Shown here: in pieces, positions 1 to 15,525 of the stretch
How the letters are laid out: each line of letters begins with the position of its first letter
Numbering within the stretch: position 1 is the stretch's first letter
Translations under genes and position numbers: made by a program
From: Candidatus Fraserbacteria bacterium
Lineage (GTDB): Bacteria; Bipolaricaulota; Bipolaricaulia; RBG-16-55-9
Assembly: GCA_037442925.1 (NCBI GenBank)
Contig: JBBIPG010000038.1
Coordinates: 1-20,980 of the forward strand
Direction: 5' to 3'
DNA length: 20,980 nt
Notes under the pieces: generated by a model
The model's input: only the letters and a program-made list of their open reading frames with translations
Told to the model about the DNA's origin: nothing
The model's database searches: none

Positions 1-146
1 AGTGGTATTGAAACCATTGGTGACTGTGGTCAATGCAGGCGGGATCAACCCTTTTAATCGAACCAGAGTGGTATTGAAACCTCACCTCGATCTCGCGGAT
101 GAAAGACCCCTTGACTCTTTTAATCGAACCAGAGTGGTATTGAAAT
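1..146 (+). CRISPR. CRISPR array, trailer end (continues off the left edge); 30-bp repeat CTTTTAATCGAACCAGAGTGGTATTGAAAC
   Basis: Partial repeat 1-14, full repeats 51-80 and 117-146 (last base C>T), unique 36-bp spacers 15-50 and 81-116. The 3' ATTGAAAC end is typical of type I-B/III repeats and implies + strand transcription; cas4/cas1/cas2 lie downstream. Confidence 0.97.
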
Positions 147-192
147 TAGAACCAGCAGTAGAGTAATCTGGTGTTGAATGGGAGGTATACTC

Positions 193-429
193 GTGGCTCA
201 ATCGGTATTGATTGAATTAGAGCTTCCTGATGATCTCTCTCGCTTAAAGCTGCCTCCCGCGCTCAACGAGCGCCTGCAGGCACTCCTCGATAAACAAGAC
301 CGAGAAGGCACGCTCACTGAACAAGAGCGCCGGGAAGCCGAAAGCCTTGTCGAGCTGGCCGAAATGCTTTCCCTCCTGAAACTGCGAGCACAACAGGCTT
401 CCAAACAGCGCCCCTCCAATGCCTCGTAG
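193..429 (+). CDS. Small helical protein (78 aa), putative antitoxin/partner of the downstream HNH nuclease
   Basis: GGAGG RBS at 181-185 precedes GTG at 193 (the ORF track starts at 178). Leu/Glu-rich helical sequence (LQALLDKQ..GTLTEQERRE..LVELAEMLSLLKLRA); overlaps the HNH start by 11 bp. Confidence 0.8.
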   Translation: MAQSVLIELELPDDLSRLKLPPALNERLQALLDKQDREGTLTEQERREAESLVELAEMLSLLKLRAQQASKQRPSNAS

Positions 430-841
430 TCCGATTCCCTCACACCTTCGCCAGCTTGTCATCGAGCGGGCAGGAAAGCGTTGCGAGTACTGCAGACTAT
501 CTCAAGAAGGGCAAGAAGCCACTTTTCATGTTGACCATGTCCACCCGGTTGCCCATGGAGGCCGAACGGAGCTGGACAATTTGGCCCTTGCCTGTGTCTC
601 CTGCTCCCTGCGAAAAGGAGCCCGCAAATCTGCGATCGACCCTCAGACGGGAGAGCAAGTACGTCTCTTCAACCCGCGCCAAGATCGCTGGGACGAGCAC
701 TTTGTTTGGACAGAGGATGTTGTACTTACCGGCCTAACCCAAATCGGCCGAGTCACTGTTGAGGCGTTGGGTTTGAATCGCCCACTCATTCAAGCGATCC
801 GGCACGTGGAGATGGAGCTGGGACGCCACCCACCTTCGTAA
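419..841 (+). CDS. Stand-alone HNH endonuclease (140 aa)
   Basis: RCEYC...FHVDHVHP..GG...DNLALACVSC..KG zinc-bound HNH core, followed by LFNPRQDRWDEHF. The last Asn of the motif is replaced by Ser (CSLRKG). Confidence 0.93.
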   Translation: MPRSPIPSHLRQLVIERAGKRCEYCRLSQEGQEATFHVDHVHPVAHGGRTELDNLALACVSCSLRKGARKSAIDPQTGEQVRLFNPRQDRWDEHFVWTEDVVLTGLTQIGRVTVEALGLNRPLIQAIRHVEMELGRHPPS

Positions 842-864
842 TCGAACCAGAGTGGTATTGAACT
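835..864 (+). CRISPR. Isolated, degenerate terminal CRISPR repeat
   Basis: TTCGTAATCGAACCAGAGTGGTATTGAACT; 24 contiguous bases (839-862) are identical to the array repeat. Confidence 0.93.
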
Positions 865-2706: not shown

Positions 2707-2934
2707 GTGACGATGGCTAAGCTGACCAGTAAAGGGCAGATCACCATTCCCAAGGAAGTGAGAGAAAAGTTGGGCTTGGCGCCTGGGGACAGGGTGGAAT
2801 TCATTGAGGAAGAAGGGCGCTTTGTGCTGCAAAAGAAGCTGCTGCAATCCCCGTTTGCTCGGTACCTGGGGTATCTCCAGCGTAAGAAAGGAGAAGACCC
2901 CGATGAGGTCGTCAAAGAACTGCGGGGCCACTGA
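2707..2934 (+). CDS. AbrB/MazE/SpoVT-family antitoxin
   Basis: AKLTSKGQITIPKEVREKLGLAPGDRVEF signature; its stop overlaps the PIN start (TGATG). The start could instead be ATG 2713. Confidence 0.93.
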   Translation: MTMAKLTSKGQITIPKEVREKLGLAPGDRVEFIEEEGRFVLQKKLLQSPFARYLGYLQRKKGEDPDEVVKELRGH

Positions 2935-3554
2935 TGATCACCGCGATAGATACCAATATTCTGCTGGACATCTTGATTCCCAATGCCCGCTATGCCGCAG
3001 CGTCCCAGCGGGCGCTCGAAGAAGCTCTGGCCGAAGGAGCCTTGGTGATCGGCGAGGTTGTCTACGCGGAGTTGGCTTCGCAGTTTCCGAGCCCGCAAAG
3101 CCTGGAGCGCTTTCTAGCCGATGCTCAGATTCGCTTAGAGCACGCGCCGCCGCAGGCTCTACAGAAAGCTGGAGCTGCGTGGAAAGCGTATATGAGAGCA
3201 CGCGGAGGGAAACTACGCTGCCCTCAATGTGGAAGAGAGCAGCAGGTTAGTTGTGTGAGCTGCGGGGAGACGATTGCGGTGCGCCAGCACATCTTGAGCG
3301 ATTTTCTAGTGGGGGCTCACGCTTTCGTGTGCGCTGATCGGCTCTTGATGGGGACCGCTATGACAACTAAGCCATATATAGCTGAGCTGCATGACATCGG
3401 CAAGTTGGCTGATCGAGAAGCTTTGGAGAAAGCTGGTTTGGACTTAAAATCCATCCGCCACACATATCAAAAATTCCCTTTCAAGCAACATGGCCTTACC
3501 GAGCCTTCTGCTCCTAGTTGGTGGGGACAATGGTCGGAGAGTATCAAGAGTTAG
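2934..3554 (+). CDS. PIN-domain (VapC-like) toxin with a Zn-ribbon insert; C-terminus apparently frameshifted and fused to an HD-motif fragment
   Basis: AIDTNILLD, VVYAELA, CPQC..CVSC, ILSDFLVGAHA..ADRLL. The expected TRD motif appears only in a shifted frame. Confidence 0.85.
   Translation: MITAIDTNILLDILIPNARYAAASQRALEEALAEGALVIGEVVYAELASQFPSPQSLERFLADAQIRLEHAPPQALQKAGAAWKAYMRARGGKLRCPQCGREQQVSCVSCGETIAVRQHILSDFLVGAHAFVCADRLLMGTAMTTKPYIAELHDIGKLADREALEKAGLDLKSIRHTYQKFPFKQHGLTEPSAPSWWGQWSESIKS
3360..3554 (+). pseudogene. Remnant N-terminus of an HD-motif protein (possibly Cas10/Cmr2-like)
   Basis: In-frame ATG at 3360, MTTKPYIAELHDIGKL; lower GC than the PIN part; stops after 64 aa. Confidence 0.5.
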
Positions 3555-3700: not shown

Positions 3701-3964
3701 ATGTACATCATCTTGGTCTACGACGTCGATCAGGAGCGCGTAGCCAAGGTCTGCAAGTTCCTCAGGCGCTATCTCCATTGGGTGCAGAACTCCGTCTTCG
3801 AAGGCGAGCTCACCGAGGCCAAGCTCGAACGAGTCAAAAGCGGCCTCAAGAAGTTGATCGACGCAGAGACGGATTCGATCTATCTCTACAAGGTCCGCGA
3901 TGAGAAGTGGATCGACAAAGAGATCCTGGGGCAGGAGCTAAACCTCACAGACACGATCATCTAA
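3701..3964 (+). CDS. cas2: CRISPR-associated endoribonuclease Cas2
   Basis: MYIILVYDV..RVAKVCKFLRRYLHWVQNSVFEGELT..DSIYLY, 87 aa. Confidence 0.97.
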   Translation: MYIILVYDVDQERVAKVCKFLRRYLHWVQNSVFEGELTEAKLERVKSGLKKLIDAETDSIYLYKVRDEKWIDKEILGQELNLTDTII

Positions 3965-5147: not shown

Positions 5148-5348
5148 CTTCTTTCCGTTGAAAATCGGGGCGACTTTGAATTCATGGGCCTATTCGGCAG
5201 CGTGAGAAAGACTCCCGCTCTGCATCGGACCCCATCAAAATCGTCCATATGAACTATACTACCATGTCTGGACCTCGCAAACCAAGTCGTCGTAGATGCC
5301 CCTTGGGTTTGGCCGCTCACTTTGTGTATGATAATGCCATTTACCACT

Positions 5349-6917
5349 ATGATGCGAACCGAGCCATCGCTCAGAACAGCACTAGAGCTGCACGGAATCC
5401 GCAATGTCAAACGGGTCCATTGGAATTTGTCTGTTCCGGCACTCTACGAGCAGATCGTAAGACGTGGCGAAGGGCAACTGGCTCAAGGAGGAGCGGTCGT
5501 CGTCCGTACCGGAGTTCATACCGGCCGTTCTCCCCAGGATCGGTTCATCGTTCGTGAGTCCACGACGGAAGATCAGATTGCCTGGGGGTCCGTGAACCAG
5601 CCCTTCAAACCCGAAGTCTTCGATGCTCTCCACCAACGGGTGCTCCAATATCTCGAAGGCAAAGAGCTTTTCGTCCAGGACCTTTACGTGTGCGCTCACT
5701 CGGAGTATCGTATGCCCATCCGGGTGATCACCGAACTCGCTTGGCACAACCTGTTTGCTCACAACCTCTTCATCCGCCGCGAGCTGCCTGAAACTCCGCA
5801 TGTCTTACCGGGGTTCACTGTGCTGAGCGTCCCCAATTTTGCCGCGTCCCCGGAGCGCGACGGCACGCGATCGGAAACATTCATTATGATTCACTTTAAG
5901 AAGAGACTGGTGCTCATTGGCGGCACCCACTATGCGGGAGAGATAAAGAAATCCGTCTTTAGTGCCTTGAACTTCCTGCTCCCTGTGCGGGGAATCTGCC
6001 CCATGCACTGCTCCGCCAACGCAGGCCCTGAAGGCGATATCGCTCTTTTCTTTGGCCTCTCGGGCACGGGGAAGACGACGCTTTCTACAGATGGGGAACG
6101 GCGACTCATCGGTGACGATGAGCACGGCTGGTTCCCCGAAGGCGTATTCAATTTTGAAGGCGGCTGCTACGCGAAAGTCATCGGAATCCAGCGGGAACAC
6201 GAACCGGAAATCTATAGGGCTTGCCAACAATTCAGCACAGTACTGGAAAACGTGGTGATCGATCCCGAAACCCGCGAACCCGACTTTGCCAGCGATGCGT
6301 TCACGGAAAACACCCGCGCTGCCTATCCCATCACGCATCTAAAGAACTACGTCCCTTCGGGGCTGGGAGGGCATCCGCGATCCATCTTCCTGCTGACATA
6401 CGATGCGTTTGGAGTGCTACCGCCCATCGCAAGACTCACCGTGGATCAGGCCGTGCAGTACTTCCTTCTGGGGTATACGGCCAAGGTAGCCGGTACGGAG
6501 CGCGATGTGAGGGAACCTCAAATCACGTTCAGTTCTTGTTTCGGTGCGCCGTTTCTACCGCGACCTCCTGCCTCCTACGCCCGGATGCTGCGCGAACGCT
6601 TAGAAGAGCACAAAGTGAACGTGTGGTTGCTGAACACTGGGATCACCGGTGGGCCGTACGGCGTAGGGAAGCGGATACCCCTCGCGCAGACCCGTGCGCT
6701 CGTGCGAGCGGCACTGGGAAGCACTCTGGAACGGACAGATTTCACCAAAGACAAGGTCTTTGGCTTACAGGTGCCTATACATTGTCCCGGCGTGCCAAGC
6801 GAACTGCTCCAGCCCCGCCGATGCTGGAGTGATCCCAAGGCCTATGACGCCCAAGCTCAAGAACTCTTCGCGCGCTTTCAACAAGAGATGAAACACTTTG
6901 ATGTAGGGTCCTTGTAG
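5349..6917 (+). CDS. pckA: Phosphoenolpyruvate carboxykinase (ATP)
   Basis: [55 protein letters not shown]. Start at 5349 or 5352. Confidence 0.97.
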
Positions 6918-7563: not shown

Positions 7564-8748
7564 ATGATCGTGGGGGTCGTAAGAGAGACGTTTCCGGGCG
7601 AACAGCGTGTCGCTCTGGTGCCTACCACGATTCCCGCACTGACCAAAGCCAAGCTCGAAGTCTGGGTGGAAGCCGGAGCGGGAGCCCCTGCGAGCTTTCC
7701 CGACGCGATGTATGTGGGGAAGGGCGCGCGCATCGTCAGTGACCGCAAAGAGATCTTCCGAAGTGCGGGCATCATTCTGCAAGTGCGCAGCCTAGGAGCC
7801 AATCCTCAAGCGGGTCGAGCGGACCTCGAACTCATGCAGCCGGAGCAGCACATCATCGGTTTTCTTGAACCCCTAACGGAAATCGAGGCGATGAAACAGC
7901 TGGCAGGGCGGAAAGTCACCGCCTTCGCCATGGAATTGATGCCGCGCATCACCCGCGCGCAGAGCATGGATGCGCTCTCATCTATGGCCACGATCGCGGG
8001 CTATAAGGCCGTGATCCTTGCGGCGTCAGTTCTTCCCAAGATGTTTCCCATGATGATGACCGCCGCGGGCACGATCAGCCCGGCGCGGGTGTTCGTCGTC
8101 GGTGCCGGCGTAGCTGGACTTCAAGCCATCGCCACCGCCCGCAAGATGGGAGCTCTCGTCCAAGCGTACGACATTCGTCCCGCGGTGAAAGAGCAGATTC
8201 AAAGCTTGGGGGCGAAGTTCGTGGAACTGCCGCTCGAAACGAAGAGCACGGAAGCAGCCGGTGGCTATGCGAAGGCCATGGATGAGGAATTCTATCGCCG
8301 CCAAAGGGAACTGATGGCCAAGACCGTTGCGGAAAACGATGTCGTGATCACTACGGCGGCTGTGCCGGGCAAGAAGGCACCCGTGTTGGTTACTGCCGAG
8401 ATGGTCCGAGGTATGAACCCCGGCTCGGTCATTGTGGATCTGGCTGCAGATCGCGGCGGGAACTGCGAACTGACGCGCCCCGGCGAGACGGTTATCGAGA
8501 ATTCTGTGACGATTCTGGCCCCCCTCAACGTGGCTTCCACACTCCCCACCCACGCGAGCCAAATGTATGCCAAGAACATCTCCAATTTCCTCTTGCACTT
8601 GATAAAGGACGGACAGATTCAATTGAACTTGGAAGATGAAATCACTCGCGAGACGCTCGTGACACGCGGTGGTGAGATCGTACACCCCCGCGTACGGGAG
8701 CTGGCTGGCCTGACGCCCGCGACGACCGCGGAAAGGAGCAGTCCATAA
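7564..8748 (+). CDS. pntA: NAD(P) transhydrogenase subunit alpha, part 1 (domain I)
   Basis: EQRVALVP, RAQSMDALSSM, GAGVAGLQA Rossmann motif, GGYAK, HASQMYAKN. Confidence 0.96.
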   Translation: MIVGVVRETFPGEQRVALVPTTIPALTKAKLEVWVEAGAGAPASFPDAMYVGKGARIVSDRKEIFRSAGIILQVRSLGANPQAGRADLELMQPEQHIIGFLEPLTEIEAMKQLAGRKVTAFAMELMPRITRAQSMDALSSMATIAGYKAVILAASVLPKMFPMMMTAAGTISPARVFVVGAGVAGLQAIATARKMGALVQAYDIRPAVKEQIQSLGAKFVELPLETKSTEAAGGYAKAMDEEFYRRQRELMAKTVAENDVVITTAAVPGKKAPVLVTAEMVRGMNPGSVIVDLAADRGGNCELTRPGETVIENSVTILAPLNVASTLPTHASQMYAKNISNFLLHLIKDGQIQLNLEDEITRETLVTRGGEIVHPRVRELAGLTPATTAERSSP

Positions 8749-9025
8749 TGCCAGATTTTGTGACACTATTGACCGTCTTCGTGCTCGCCATTTTCGTGGG
8801 GTTTGAAGTCATCAGCAAGGTGCCACCCATTCTGCACACGCCGCTCATGTCAGGCACCAACGCCATCCACGGGATCGTAGTGCTGGGCGGCATGCTCGTC
8901 TTGGCGACGGCCGAGGGTCTGTGGGCCACTGTATTCGGCTTCATCGCTGTAGTCTTCGGGACGATCAACGTGGTCGGCGGATTCTTCGTCACGGATCGCA
9001 TGCTGCAAATGTTCCGGAGGCGGTC

Positions 9026-9029
<4 letters not shown>
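8748..9029 (+). CDS. pntA: NAD(P) transhydrogenase subunit alpha, part 2 (membrane)
   Basis: VPPILHTPLMSGTNAIHG, INVVGGFFVTDRMLQMF. Confidence 0.96.
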
Positions 9030-10432
<1,403 letters not shown>

Positions 10433-11339: not shown

Positions 11340-12773
11340 TCAGCGGGGATTGTCAGCCGAAGACGGAGTCAACGGCAGGCTGAAGGTGAAGGTGGTCCCC
11401 TGCTGGGGTGGGCTCTCGACCCAGACCCGCCCACCATGCGCTTCGATGAACTGCTTAGCGATGGCCAGCCCCAGCCCCGATCCGCCGCTGCCGCGTGCGC
11501 GTGATCTGTCCGCCCGCCAGAAGCGCTCGAAGACATACGGCAGATCCTGTGGAGCGATCCCAGGTCCGGTATCTGAGACGCTTACGAGCGCATCTTCGTT
11601 CTGTCGCACCAATCGCACGTGGATCTCTCCCCCATCGGGCGTGTAGCGCTGGGCGTTGCTCAAGAGATTCAGAAGTACTTGAGCAATTCGCTCCGAATCA
11701 CAGTGCGCGATCAGGGGTTCCTCCGGCACGTCGAGCACGAGTTGAATCTTTTTGTGTTGCAGCTGAGGCTTGAAGACAGCAATGACTCGTCGAATCAATC
11801 CACGTAGATCTGTGGCTTGACGCTTAAGACGCAGTTCGCCCGCTTCTGCTAAGCTCAAATCGCGTAGATCGTTGATGATCCGACTGAGCAGCTGGCTCTC
11901 TTCGTGAAGGGAAGCGATCATTTGTGGTGTAGGCTCGTAGATGCCATCGAGGACCGCTTGCAGATTCCCCTCGATGACGGTAAGGGGTGTGCGCAGCTCA
12001 TGGGCGATGTCGGCGGTCATTTGGCGGCGTAGCTGCTCCGATGTATCCAGACGCGCGGCCATGCGATTGAAGGCCGCACTCAGCTGCCCCAGCTCATCTT
12101 GCGAGTAAACGGGTAGGCGCGGCCCTGGGCCTGAATTACCCGATGCGATCTGCTCTGTGGCTCGGGCTAACTGGCGCAAGGGAACCGTCAACTGACGCAA
12201 CAGCAAGGCTCCTACGATGAGAGCGGCCAGGGCAGCGATCAGGCTCGCAATCAAGATGGAACGGCTGATGGAGTCGAGAAAGGCTTGCTCAAGTGGGTTG
12301 AAGGCATTCTCTAGAGAACCCGCCAAGAGCGTGCCTACTCGTTGAGTTGCCGTGTTGATGGGCACGCCGTTGATGAGTGCTTCTTGAGTGAGGCGCCGGC
12401 CCACAAGTTGCTGGTTTGGCGCGAGTAGTATTGTGCCATCTTCGTCGGCCAAGATGAGATTGTAATGGTAGAGGAGCATGGCGGGGTTCATCTGGTACAT
12501 CATCTCATGGCCCATGGGAGACGGCGATCCTGTCGCGCTAAAGAAGTTTTCGATTCCACGCCAGCTGCCATTGCGTGTATAATAATCTGCAAAGAGCGGT
12601 TGCAGCTCATAGGCATGAATGATCCCGCTTTGGGTACTGTAGACCTGAAAGCCCTCGCGCAGGGCGCGCTCGACCAGCCAGTAGGCAGTAGCTCCGCCTA
12701 GGAGGATCACGGCGGCAAAAGCCCCGATGAGCTTGACGCGCAGCGGGACTCGTGCATTGATTCGTGAGATCAT
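11340..12773 (-). CDS. HAMP-containing sensor histidine kinase (BaeS-like)
   Basis: Two TM helices, HAMP (DELGQLSAAFNRMA), H-box DIAHELRTPL, N-box QVLLNLLSNA, DTGPGI, GSGLGL. Confidence 0.96.
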   Translation of the reverse strand: MISRINARVPLRVKLIGAFAAVILLGGATAYWLVERALREGFQVYSTQSGIIHAYELQPLFADYYTRNGSWRGIENFFSATGSPSPMGHEMMYQMNPAMLLYHYNLILADEDGTILLAPNQQLVGRRLTQEALINGVPINTATQRVGTLLAGSLENAFNPLEQAFLDSISRSILIASLIAALAALIVGALLLRQLTVPLRQLARATEQIASGNSGPGPRLPVYSQDELGQLSAAFNRMAARLDTSEQLRRQMTADIAHELRTPLTVIEGNLQAVLDGIYEPTPQMIASLHEESQLLSRIINDLRDLSLAEAGELRLKRQATDLRGLIRRVIAVFKPQLQHKKIQLVLDVPEEPLIAHCDSERIAQVLLNLLSNAQRYTPDGGEIHVRLVRQNEDALVSVSDTGPGIAPQDLPYVFERFWRADRSRARGSGGSGLGLAIAKQFIEAHGGRVWVESPPQQGTTFTFSLPLTPSSADNPR

Positions 12774-12844
12774 GGGTGTCCTTCAAGGCGCAGTGTAAAA
12801 GATAAAGAGGGCTGAATCAAAGCGACCCAGCCCTCGGTTTCTCG

Positions 12845-13228
12845 CTATTTCTGAGTTTCGTCCTGGGGTTGCTCTGGCGTGATAGGAGCGTCGGTCTGCA
12901 TTCCTGCGCAGTGTCCCCCGCCTTCCCCCATCATGCCACCCTGCATCTGGCCCATGCCCCCACCGCCCATCATGCCGCCGTGCATTCCGCCCATGCCGCT
13001 GCCCATGCCATTCATGTTGCCCATATTGCCCGAAGGCCCCATGCTCCCACCTTGCATCATGGGGCCCATCGATCCCATCATACCGCCCTGCTGCATCATG
13101 GGACCCATGGCTCCCGACATAGGGCTGGAAGCCCCATTGGCATTGCCCGATCCCCAACTGGTGATGCCAAGCGCGACAAGCCCCAGCAAGAGTGCACCAC
13201 CGATTACGGCTAGTAATGTATTGTTCAT
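12845..13228 (-). CDS. Exported or membrane-anchored Met/Gly-rich low-complexity protein
   Basis: AAGGAG RBS; N-terminal hydrophobic helix; about 23 Met in 127 aa; MGPMMQ occurs twice. Confidence 0.8.
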   Translation of the reverse strand: MNNTLLAVIGGALLLGLVALGITSWGSGNANGASSPMSGAMGPMMQQGGMMGSMGPMMQGGSMGPSGNMGNMNGMGSGMGGMHGGMMGGGGMGQMQGGMMGEGGGHCAGMQTDAPITPEQPQDETQK

Positions 13229-13247
13229 GATTCTCTCCTTTCGAAGT

Positions 13248-13940
13248 CTAAAGCACCTTCATGTCTACAAATGGCCCGTGCCAGGTGTAATACCAGACCC
13301 AGCCTGTGTAGCCGTTTACGCTTAGCATACTGATGATCTTATCGTCCCTCATCACGAATACATCATAGAAGCCGTAGAAGGTATCTACTTCTGCACTGAC
13401 GGTAGTTCCGGGCAGATACGCATCGAGAAAGCTTTGCGCCGACTGCTTGGCCTGTTCAGCAGTGACCGGCATCTGAGTGGTGGGCACTGTCGGCCACCAG
13501 GACCAGGGCGGACCATGCATGTGTCCCCAACCCATACCGTACTTGGTGTTCCACATCGTGTTAGGTCCAGGTTCCCAGCAGACAGATCCCGTCGTGAGCT
13601 TGTCGATGAGCAGGGTGAAGGCTCCGGCTCCGGTGCTCTTCTCTTTGACAACGACGTCAAAGTGGTTCGTGAAGTCGATCACTTTGGCCGCTACTAGATC
13701 GGGGTTGCCAACGAAGGCCAGATATTGTTGTGTGGCTACTATGGCCTGATCGATCGTGAGTGGTGTAGGTGTCTGGGGGAAACCCAAGCTCCAGAGAGCC
13801 CGGCAACCCATCATCGGCCCCGGCCCTCCTTGGCTCATAGGTCCTGCGGGTCCTCCACCACCCATCTGAGCCCAAGCTGTCACACTAAGCAACAGAGTTG
13901 CTACCACCAAGGCTATGCTACGTGCTATTGTTCTCTTCAT
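13248..13940 (-). CDS. Secreted hypothetical protein with two PepSY-like repeats
   Basis: AAGGAGG RBS; signal peptide ending AWA-Q; LTIDQA..QQYL and VTAEQA..QSFL repeats; EPGPNTMWNTKYG and LSVNGYTG.VW..WHG motifs. Confidence 0.8.
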   Translation of the reverse strand: MKRTIARSIALVVATLLLSVTAWAQMGGGGPAGPMSQGGPGPMMGCRALWSLGFPQTPTPLTIDQAIVATQQYLAFVGNPDLVAAKVIDFTNHFDVVVKEKSTGAGAFTLLIDKLTTGSVCWEPGPNTMWNTKYGMGWGHMHGPPWSWWPTVPTTQMPVTAEQAKQSAQSFLDAYLPGTTVSAEVDTFYGFYDVFVMRDDKIISMLSVNGYTGWVWYYTWHGPFVDMKVL

Positions 13941-13967
13941 GACGTTACCTCCTTCTTCCGGAACCCC

Positions 13968-14023
13968 AGCGTAGCTTGCGCAAGTGGAGGATATGTGAAG
14001 GAGTTATGGAGGTTCTATGGAGA
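13968..14023 (-). promoter_or_regulatory. Four 11-bp-period direct repeats plus a -10 box (OmpR/PhoB-type activated promoter)
   Basis: + strand GTGGAGG 13984, GTGAAGG 13995, ATGGAGG 14006, ATGGAGA 14017; minus-strand TACGCT at 13968-13973. Confidence 0.7.
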
Positions 14024-14713
14024 TGCTTCGCCGCGAGAGAACTTGTAGCCCACGCCGTGAACGGTCAAGATGTATTTTGGGGTTTTCGGGTCGGCTTCGA
14101 TCTTCCTGCGCAGGTTCTTGATGTGGGTGTCGATGGTGCGCTCAAACGTGGCGTAGGTGACGTTGTAGAGCGCCTCCATCAACTGACGTCGGCTGAAGAC
14201 CCGGCCCGGTTGCTCCGCGAGTGTGGTCAAGACGTTGAACTCGATGGGCGTGAGCGGGACGATCTCTCCTCTCAAGCGAACTTCGTGGCTGTGGAGATCG
14301 CTCACGAGCTCGCCCGCTTCGATCACGCTTGGCTTGGCTATCCCTTCTGCTCTACGCAAGACGGCGCGCACGCGAGCCAGCAACTCGCGCGGGTTGAAGG
14401 GTTTTACGATGTAGTCATCCGCACCGAGTTCGAGACCCGCCACTCGATCTGCTTCTTCTGCCCGTGCCGTGAGCATGATGATCGGAGCGTTCGACTCTTT
14501 GCGAATCGACCGAGCCACGTCCATTCCGTCGATGTCCGGCAGCATGAGATCCAACACCACGAGATCAGGCTGCTCTCTCTCAAAGAGATCGAGGGCCCCC
14601 CGCCCGTCGTAGGCGGAGAGCGCTCGAAAACCCGACTTTTCTAAATACGCTCGGAGCAAGTGGACAATCTTGGGCTCATCATCTACGACCAGAATCTTCT
14701 TCACGCTCTCCAT
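14015..14713 (-). CDS. OmpR/PhoB-family response regulator
   Basis: KILVVDDE, LDLMLP, IIMLTAR, GADDYIVKPF, RTIDTHIKNLRRK, TVHGVGYKF. Start set at ATG 14713. Confidence 0.96.
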   Translation of the reverse strand: MESVKKILVVDDEPKIVHLLRAYLEKSGFRALSAYDGRGALDLFEREQPDLVVLDLMLPDIDGMDVARSIRKESNAPIIMLTARAEEADRVAGLELGADDYIVKPFNPRELLARVRAVLRRAEGIAKPSVIEAGELVSDLHSHEVRLRGEIVPLTPIEFNVLTTLAEQPGRVFSRRQLMEALYNVTYATFERTIDTHIKNLRRKIEADPKTPKYILTVHGVGYKFSRGEASP

Positions 14714-14742
14714 GTTGGATGAAAGAGAGCTTTGGGGCAAGC

Positions 14743-15525
14743 TTACGAGTAATGGCAATCTCCCGCGCATGTCGGGCCCGGTCGCTCGCAGTGCCCAAAG
14801 ACGCACGTCAGAAAGAGCTTCCAAACCAGATCAGGCACGCCTCGCTTGACCGGCAGCTTCAGTTCCCTCAGATTCTCAAACGAGAGCGGTCGTGCGTGAG
14901 CTACATAACCTCCCGTCAAGAACTCCGCGATTGACTCTCGGTGCGCTTTGGTCATCGCTTTGTCGTCCAGGAACCAGTCGATGTAACTGCGAACCTCGGT
15001 AAGCGCCTTCTCCGCCAGATCGGCCAGCGCAATCGTCTCATCGCCGATGGAGTCAATACTCTTCTTTGCCATAATGCCGAGCAGCGAGCCTGCCGCCACT
15101 CCGTTGATTTGAGGATCGAGCGGCCCCAACACTGAAAAATTCTCCATCAAGATCTCATCGGCTGCCAAGGCAATCAACGTACCACCGCTCATGGCGTAGA
15201 AGGGCACAATCGCAGTGACTTTGGCCGGATGTTGTTTGATGGCAGAGCCGATCATCTCGGCAGCCAGTTGCAGTCCACCGGGCGTGTGAATGATCATGTC
15301 TATGGGTGCTTTCTTTGGCGTTTGATGGATTTCCATGAGGACATGTTCGGTATCTTCAATGGTGATGCTCTGCTCCTCTTCCAGCCAAGGCTCCTTGCGA
15401 TGGATGAGCGTGATGGCGCGACTGCCACGTTCCTGCTCCAACTGGTCAATGATCTTCCGGCGCTGGGCTAGGATCTGCTGCCGTAACTCCTCTTTGTCCC
15501 TGGACTGTTCCTCTGCTGCAGACAT
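14743..15525 (-). CDS. SDH-family ClpP-class serine protease (DUF114-like)
   Basis: ITLIHR, IIHTPGG, PFYAMSGGTLIALAADEI, LGPLDPQI, His in AHARPL. Confidence 0.9.
   Translation of the reverse strand: MSAAEEQSRDKEELRQQILAQRRKIIDQLEQERGSRAITLIHRKEPWLEEEQSITIEDTEHVLMEIHQTPKKAPIDMIIHTPGGLQLAAEMIGSAIKQHPAKVTAIVPFYAMSGGTLIALAADEILMENFSVLGPLDPQINGVAAGSLLGIMAKKSIDSIGDETIALADLAEKALTEVRSYIDWFLDDKAMTKAHRESIAEFLTGGYVAHARPLSFENLRELKLPVKRGVPDLVWKLFLTCVFGHCERPGPTCAGDCHYS

Follow-up and report, generated by a model that had tools for sequence, protein, structure and literature searches.

A toxin–antitoxin-like gene pair at the trailer end of a CRISPR array in Candidatus Fraserbacteria, probably a cassette inserted into the terminal repeat

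The window analyzed here, a stretch of 20,980 nucleotides, is the start (from base 1) of contig C38 of the Candidatus Fraserbacteria assembly GCA_037442925.1 (genome G000; contig accession JBBIPG010000038.1). It opens within a CRISPR array on the forward strand. The 3′ part of a repeat cut by the contig start (1–14) is followed by a 36-bp spacer (15–50), a consensus 30-bp repeat (51–80), a second 36-bp spacer (81–116), and the last full-length repeat (117–146), which agrees with the consensus at 29 of 30 positions and has T instead of C as its final base. The next repeat sequence, in the same orientation, begins only after an interval holding two genes. This right unit (839–862) is an exact copy of repeat positions 5 to 28 (24 of the 30 bp), and the core of the last full repeat (121–144) is the left copy of this 24-bp duplication. 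The stop codon TAA of the second gene (839–841) forms the first bases of the right copy, and the bases preceding 839 are that gene's own Pro-Ser codons. The original prediction had described co-oriented repeats at 117–146 and 835–864 that bracket 688 bp, compared to 36 bp for the spacers. Orientation and distance were confirmed, but the right unit is not a full-length repeat, as an ungapped alignment of the full repeat to 835–864 gives 5 mismatches in 30 positions.

Neither a spacer nor a repeat was found in the window 3′ of position 862, and the region beyond it encodes cas4, cas1, an AbrB/PIN pair, and cas2. Elsewhere in genome G000, the repeat occurs only at the end of contig C6, where its copies, one of them identical to the consensus copy at 51–80, follow a leader that is preceded by cas6, an AbiEi/AbiEii pair, a ParE-family gene, cas3, a Cas8-like gene, cas7, and a Cas5-like gene. 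Since the leader and the cas6, cas3, cas8, cas7, and cas5 genes are at the end of C6 and no repeat occurs past 862, we infer a C6–C38 join, in which the array most likely runs from C6 into C38 with the gene pair at its trailer end. In relatives, too, the terminal repeats depart from the consensus at their 3′ ends, which fits this orientation. Thus, the pair follows the last full repeat and is not located inside the CRISPR array, as had been proposed. On C6, a degenerate repeat with 4 mismatches is present in the leader (L094, 168–197), 117 bp upstream of the first repeat; judged by its sequence, it could be a mini-array, and the guide search found no target for it.

The two genes were found as originally described. 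A ribosome-binding site (GGAGG, 181–185) precedes a 78-aa ORF (193–429) with a GTG start at 193, 46 bp past the repeat, and this ORF overlaps by 11 nt a 140-aa ORF encoding an HNH-fold protein (419–841; Pfam HNH, E 6e-13), all on the forward strand. The 188 homologues of the small protein are all unnamed or annotated as "hypothetical"; no family match was obtained in Pfam, NCBIfam, or PADLOC, and the ESM Atlas returned unnamed clusters only. Its structural model (pLDDT 86) shows an extended N-terminus and two helices (22–38 and 43–71), and a fold search with this model gave no match at E 0.001. The protein is a candidate antitoxin or partner.

The HNH-fold protein carries the motif CxxC...DH...N...CxxC, comprising D39, H40, N54, and four cysteines, and D39, H40, and N54 are invariant in an alignment of 62 sequences. 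Its NCBIfam matches are all far under the cut-off. The spacing of positions 39, 40, and 63 equals that of D839, H840, and N863 of SpCas9, residues given as the catalytic triad in a passage of PMC6706240. In the alignment to the Cas9 HNH domain, Ser63 sits after the last CxxC, where Asn or His is usual as the second metal ligand. Serine occupies this position in 105 of 107 partner-linked homologues, compared to Asn or His in all 34 homologues that have upstream room and no match to the small partner. Because the usual second metal ligand is replaced by Ser, nuclease activity of the entire partner-linked subfamily is, on alignment evidence, doubtful, and with it the proposal of an HNH nuclease toxin. 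Among homologous loci, 84 intact pairs with a gap of −11 to +25 (most commonly −4) and varied neighbours exhibit the layout of type II toxin–antitoxin (TA) systems. No known toxin or antitoxin family matched the small protein, and the HNH match is generic only. By gene order and spacing, the pair is TA-like in layout.

Downstream on the same strand, cas4 (1085–1597, profile match) and cas1 (1619–2617; TIGR03641, 466 bits against a cut-off of 304, type I-B) are followed by an AbrB/MazE antitoxin and PIN ORF (2707–3554) and by cas2 (3701–3964), the last two assigned by family matches. The tail of the PIN ORF (3360–3554) encodes a 64-aa piece resembling the Cas10 N-terminus (PADLOC, E 5e-8), and as cas1 and cas2 are separated by a type III module in a relative, G015, this piece may be a remnant of such a module. 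The cas6 gene on C6 is intact. The effector genes there (L094, 355–6107) are divergent, with a Cas3 bearing a C-terminal HD domain, a DevR-type Cas7, and weak Cas8a and Cas5a matches, and they accompany a clear I-B Cas1. Further along the window, 5322–6917, 7564–10432, and 11340–14824 presumably encode PEP carboxykinase, NAD(P) transhydrogenase subunits, and a two-component system, respectively.

In relatives, other gene pairs occupy the position ahead of cas4. Repeat intervals in these relatives measure 35–41 bp in 39 of 40 cases, and the arrays of G012, G018, G020, G021, and G032 are regular among the matches listed. Lone repeats occur in G023, G029, G033, G025, and G006, and no further long interval was present among the loci returned. 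One long interval was found in a congener, G001 (L213, contig C70, 2543–4778), in which two full repeats 2,176 bp apart, on a short, scaffolded contig, enclose a Gp49/RelE-like and HTH pair and an AAA_14/DUF4143 ATPase, with a 5′ piece of cas4 fused to the second repeat. In G012, a congener of G015, a lone degenerate repeat lies upstream of cas4. In G029 (L219, contig C77, 1420–1550), two repeats face each other head to head in opposite orientation; TTGAAA in the forward repeat lies 17 bp before a TATAAT, which gives the following gene a ready-made promoter.

The gene pair is common outside CRISPR loci. Among the 80 best of 94 genome loci, 38 carry both genes, as do 72 among the 80 best of 249 metagenome loci, which makes 110 of 160 homologous loci combined. 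None of the 160 loci had a CRISPR array next to the pair or matched the cas proteins of G000, with probes from this one system and flanks of at most 2.5–3 kb, often shorter, as many of the loci are short. Three loci flagged in the repeat scan (L035, L139, and L167) contained, on inspection, a coding repeat and interspersed repeats rather than CRISPR. No Cas family was recognized among 118 neighbouring ORFs of the 38 genome loci, whose named neighbours are mostly housekeeping genes. The expectation that homologous pairs elsewhere would be repeat-flanked was therefore not borne out, and a conserved array module is not supported. A search of the phage collection recovered no copy of the pair; viral contigs gave one HNH match (49%), plasmids one match (39%), and no viral contig contained the exact 24-bp repeat core.

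Within the phylum of the window, 5 of 184 genomes had a match to the small protein, four of them strong (G000, G004, G009, and G015). The HNH gene of G004 is cut short, and the pair of G009 sits between genes that, read from their sequences, are ffh-like and SDR-like. In G015, the pair immediately precedes cas4, is flanked on each side by a 69-bp copy of the cas4 5′ end, and has an upstream promoter (TTGACG-17-TATAGT), so that two of the four strong phylum copies (G000 and G015) directly precede cas4. In the G015 congener G012, this cas4 piece and promoter recur ahead of a DUF2281/PIN pair, and the small protein has no match there; the copy of G015 was not found in its congeners G012, G022, and G028. 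As G012 has the site without the pair, the comparison points to a separate insertion in G015. In a tree built from 25 of the 62 pairs, the window groups with G015, G009, and L095 (support 99/96), but a clade of the window and G015 is not resolved (85/55). Window and G015 share 69–75% identity in the pair and 64 and 73% in cas4 and cas1, and the non-CRISPR copies L095 and G009 are equally close to the pair of the window. Homologues far from CRISPR also end in His-Pro-Pro-Ser-stop.

Duplications around other copies of the pair were scored by comparing 300 bp of upstream sequence with 315 bp of downstream sequence and taking the best ungapped match, with a threshold of at least 16. This score was reached by 7 of 39 genome loci (the window included; L039 and L070 dropped for a short flank or missing stop) compared to 2 of 64 shifted controls, and by 9 of 56 metagenome loci (16 of 72 dropped for the same reasons) compared to 4 of 66. 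With the window left out, direct repeats bracket 15 of the 94 scored copies, some of them near-duplicates, and 6 of 130 controls; the other 79 scored copies had no detectable duplication. The duplicated DNA corresponds to the beginning or end of a gene or to a terminator-like stretch, never to a CRISPR repeat.

Similar arrangements were found throughout genome G000, in which 59 direct-repeat pairs lie 400–2300 bp apart and 10 of these, from 8 sites, flank a unit of two genes. Apart from the window, TA-type families are present at six sites: AbiEi/AbiEii, VapB/PIN, unknown/PIN, and HicB/HicA, together with DUF433/DUF5615 and DUF5678/aspartyl protease, which we take to be TA-type pairs. These six, on contigs C1, C6, C17, C26, and C42 (L223–L226 and L094), have duplications of 30–152 bp and no transposase inside; a C23 row flagged as a cassette, without a Pfam check, is left out of this count. 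AbiEi/AbiEii is bracketed by a duplicated cas6 3′ end, and in the C26 cassette the stop codon abuts the copy, as in the window. The AbrB/PIN pair of the window has no bracketing duplication (best score 9), so not every cassette shows one. In G015, three copies of the cas6 3′ end surround inserted genes. More broadly, repeated duplications of the 5′ end of cas4 and the 3′ end of cas6 surround inserted cassettes in G015 (L092, contig C17, 9600–11000 and 16880–18960) and G012 (L183), and a near-identical promoter follows the cas4 piece in both genomes.

For the window, the boundaries of the exact duplication delimit an inferred inserted cassette of 694 bp (145–838, forward strand), and the simplest reading is that this cassette lies between two 24-bp target copies, the last two bases of the left repeat being supplied by the cassette. 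It encodes only the two ORFs and no transposase and so does not classify as an insertion sequence. Its GC content (0.558 at 147–834) is close to that of the genome (0.560).

A consensus scan of positions 1–1200 found no sigma-70 promoter on the forward strand, in agreement with the original prediction. The 5′ leader of the cassette (149–178) contains a −10-like TAGAGT (159–164) and no properly spaced −35. The same TAGAGT is, read by eye, the apparent −10 of the promoters of related cassettes; the TTGAAA of the repeat lies only 13 bp from it, and TTGAAA-18-TAATCT is a weak alternative promoter. Because no intact promoter was found, transcription of the pair by read-through from the array appears likely. 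The leader also bears a weak, collinear likeness to the two halves of the repeat, with extra bases between them, a post hoc observation equalled in 26 of 2000 shuffles and in 58 of 20,000 genome windows.

The repeat is predicted to fold into a hairpin of 4 bp, with the base of the stem 8 nt away from the 3′ end, which places the Cas6 cut sites correctly at 138 and 856, as had been expected. In context at 37°C, the probability of the outer three pairs is 0.85–0.94 in the repeats at 51 and 117 (0.86–0.91 in the left copy flanking the pair) compared to 0.01–0.25 in the right copy, and this gap persists at 55 and 65°C; both copies fold the hairpin in isolation. These values are fold predictions, and translation could change the local fold. 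A stable hairpin is predicted just after the right copy (868–898; fold z −2.9 for 862–930). Hairpins disrupted by their context were left uncut by a cyanobacterial Cas6, according to part of PMC5741207. Thus, of the proposal that the pair is expressed from the pre-crRNA, read-through is plausible, but release of an mRNA by Cas6 at both ends is not supported, as the right copy is predicted not to form the hairpin in context. Six candidate guides (two spacers, a part spacer, and three repeat-adjacent segments, most of the array being unassembled) gave no convincing seed match in the cassette leader; the best candidates were 10 seed matches located within the C6 cas locus and a match at 22 of 36 positions on C25.

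Taken together, the trailer position, the 24-bp duplication whose ends are not repeat ends, the stop codon fused to the right copy, and the six like sites in the same genome make insertion the most likely origin, and we consider it probable that a TA-like cassette was inserted into the terminal CRISPR repeat with duplication of 24 bp of its target. The original prediction had held a rare insertion in reserve; this fits, and bracketing of the pair by duplicated target DNA recurs at non-CRISPR sites. According to this model, a widespread two-gene cassette would have inserted into the terminal repeat and duplicated 24 bp of it, the join perhaps being aided by a short likeness between the natural end of the gene and the start of the repeat. 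The cassette would retain its −10-like hexamer without a matching −35 and would likely be transcribed by read-through from the array; Cas6 would trim the 5′ end near 138 and would probably not cut near 856. The small protein would bind the HNH-fold protein, probably a weak or inactive nuclease, in a selfish or stress-type pair. The link to CRISPR would be one of place and not of mechanism, and the pair is probably not a dedicated CRISPR module. Some observations count against insertion. An empty site for this locus was not seen, the contig of the only congener starting inside cas4; most scored copies elsewhere (79 of 94) lack a duplication, and 6 of 130 controls also reached the threshold; two of the four strong phylum copies precede cas4; and G001 has its own gene-bearing interval between full repeats.

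Several other explanations have to be weighed against this insertion. Repeat-driven misassembly is very improbable, even though the window opens at a contig end within an array. When contigs from four of the eight listed sequencing runs (X1, X2, X3, and X6) were compared with the window, a single X1 contig covered 116–2486 without a difference at an even depth of 17, X6, from a second sample, spanned 719–884, and X2 and X3, which look like one data set, contained 192–362 and 419–585 without a difference; no contig in the four runs skipped the insert. X1 may be the source sample itself. Run X1 also has a loose end at window position 1117, where a contig carries a cas4 start almost identical to the upstream cas4 copy of G015, and a G015-like organism may co-occur in that sample. 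In another scenario, Cas1–Cas2(–Cas4) integrated the 688 bp as one of the first spacers, growth of the array shifted it to the trailer, and the right repeat subsequently degenerated at its two ends. The left boundary at the repeat end would suit such an acquisition, one substitution and two indels suffice to align the right unit with the full repeat, and long intervals between repeats are known from Sulfolobus solfataricus locus F (899 bp, as described in part of PMC4390879) and from G001 (2,176 bp between full repeats). We regard it as unlikely, since the duplication is exact over 24 bp and its boundaries do not coincide with those of the repeat, the mismatches fall in conserved codons of the HNH gene, and the length set by the system is 35–41 bp (39 of 40 intervals in relatives) compared to 688 bp. 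Moreover, the insert is a whole cassette that elsewhere inserts with duplications, and the phage collection yielded no copy of the pair, with single matches of 49% (viral HNH) and 39% (plasmid) in mobile DNA.

About equally improbable is a rearrangement in which the pair resided before cas4, as in G015, and recombination or deletion brought the array and a stray piece of repeat around it. The pair–cas4–cas1 order common to G015, pair identities (69–75%) similar to those of cas4 and cas1 (64 and 73%), the lone degenerate repeat upstream of cas4 in G012, and the cas4 piece fused to a repeat in G001 are consistent with it. They are outweighed by the G015 copy being bracketed by its own cas4 duplication and not found in G012, G022, and G028, by non-CRISPR copies (L095 and G009) that are equally close, and by a right copy that is identical at 24 of 24 positions and fused to the stop codon. 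Still less likely is a selected array-embedded module whose mRNA is freed by Cas6 cuts at 138 and 856 and which safeguards CRISPR-Cas or acts in abortive infection. Although the missing promoter, the intact cas6 on C6, the hairpin sequence kept by both copies and folding in isolation, and the enrichment of TA genes near type I-B cas genes (part of bioRxiv 10.1101/2023.03.03.530964) would favor such a module, the arrangement was seen once and at none of the 160 homologous loci, the right hairpin is predicted to be disrupted, Ser occupies the metal-ligand position, and no spacer or mini-array guide gave a convincing seed match to the cassette leader.

Insertion of a cassette into the terminal repeat would have implications beyond this locus. 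"Giant spacers" could arise without Cas1–Cas2 when small, target-duplicating cassettes land in a repeat, and whole compared to partial flanking repeats would separate Cas1–Cas2 acquisition from cassette insertion. Genome G000, with seven clean TA-type cassettes between target duplications, should be useful for studying how transposase-free TA pairs move. The pair itself belongs to a common, unnamed family in which the HNH protein no longer has one of the usual metal ligands. The gene-bearing interval of G001 hints that repeats may be more than random targets. A speculative and rather unlikely extension is that in this genus repeats are recurrent landing pads for protein-coding cassettes and that the pair rides on the CRISPR transcript, with Cas6 setting the 5′ end of its mRNA and leaving a crRNA-like handle that Cascade could bind, so that expression would be tied to CRISPR activity. 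If this were true, a protein-coding mRNA would be matured by crRNA processing.

A literature search found nothing on the gene pair or its repeat-bracketed arrangement, and several known systems share some of its features. Stand-alone Zn-binding HNH proteins (PF01844, with PtuB, IscB, and the Cas9 HNH domain as distant relatives) have the same CxxC...DH...N...CxxC motif, but the protein described here has Ser at the position of SpCas9 N863. Insertion sequences are found inserted within CRISPR arrays. Like oversized array inserts such as the 899-bp plasmid-like fragment in S. solfataricus locus F (described in part of PMC4390879), the cassette places hundreds of bases between co-oriented repeat sequences; in contrast to these, its right unit at the trailer comprises just 24 bp of the repeat, and it is an intact chromosomal cassette with no transposase. 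CreTA and the mini-arrays encoding cr-like RNAs likewise combine repeat-like sequence with an accessory module in a type I locus. CreTA, as presented in part of bioRxiv 10.1101/2023.03.03.530964, is an RNA-only system that acts by Cascade-guided promoter repression, whereas here there are two proteins, an undiverged piece of repeat, and no match between a guide and a promoter. A further comparison is with TA pairs in cas gene cassettes. Passages of PMC4390879 describe vapBC pairs interspersed in the cas gene cassettes of Sulfolobales, and those of bioRxiv 10.1101/2023.03.03.530964 describe TA cargo hotspots in class 1 loci, with enrichment near mini-arrays in types I-B, I-D, I-E, and I-F1. The locus described here is likewise of type I, with a small overlapping gene pair in a variable slot, and it also holds AbiEi/AbiEii, a ParE-family gene, and AbrB/PIN. 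Unlike those pairs, this one belongs to no named TA family, and the slot that it occupies is the terminal repeat itself.
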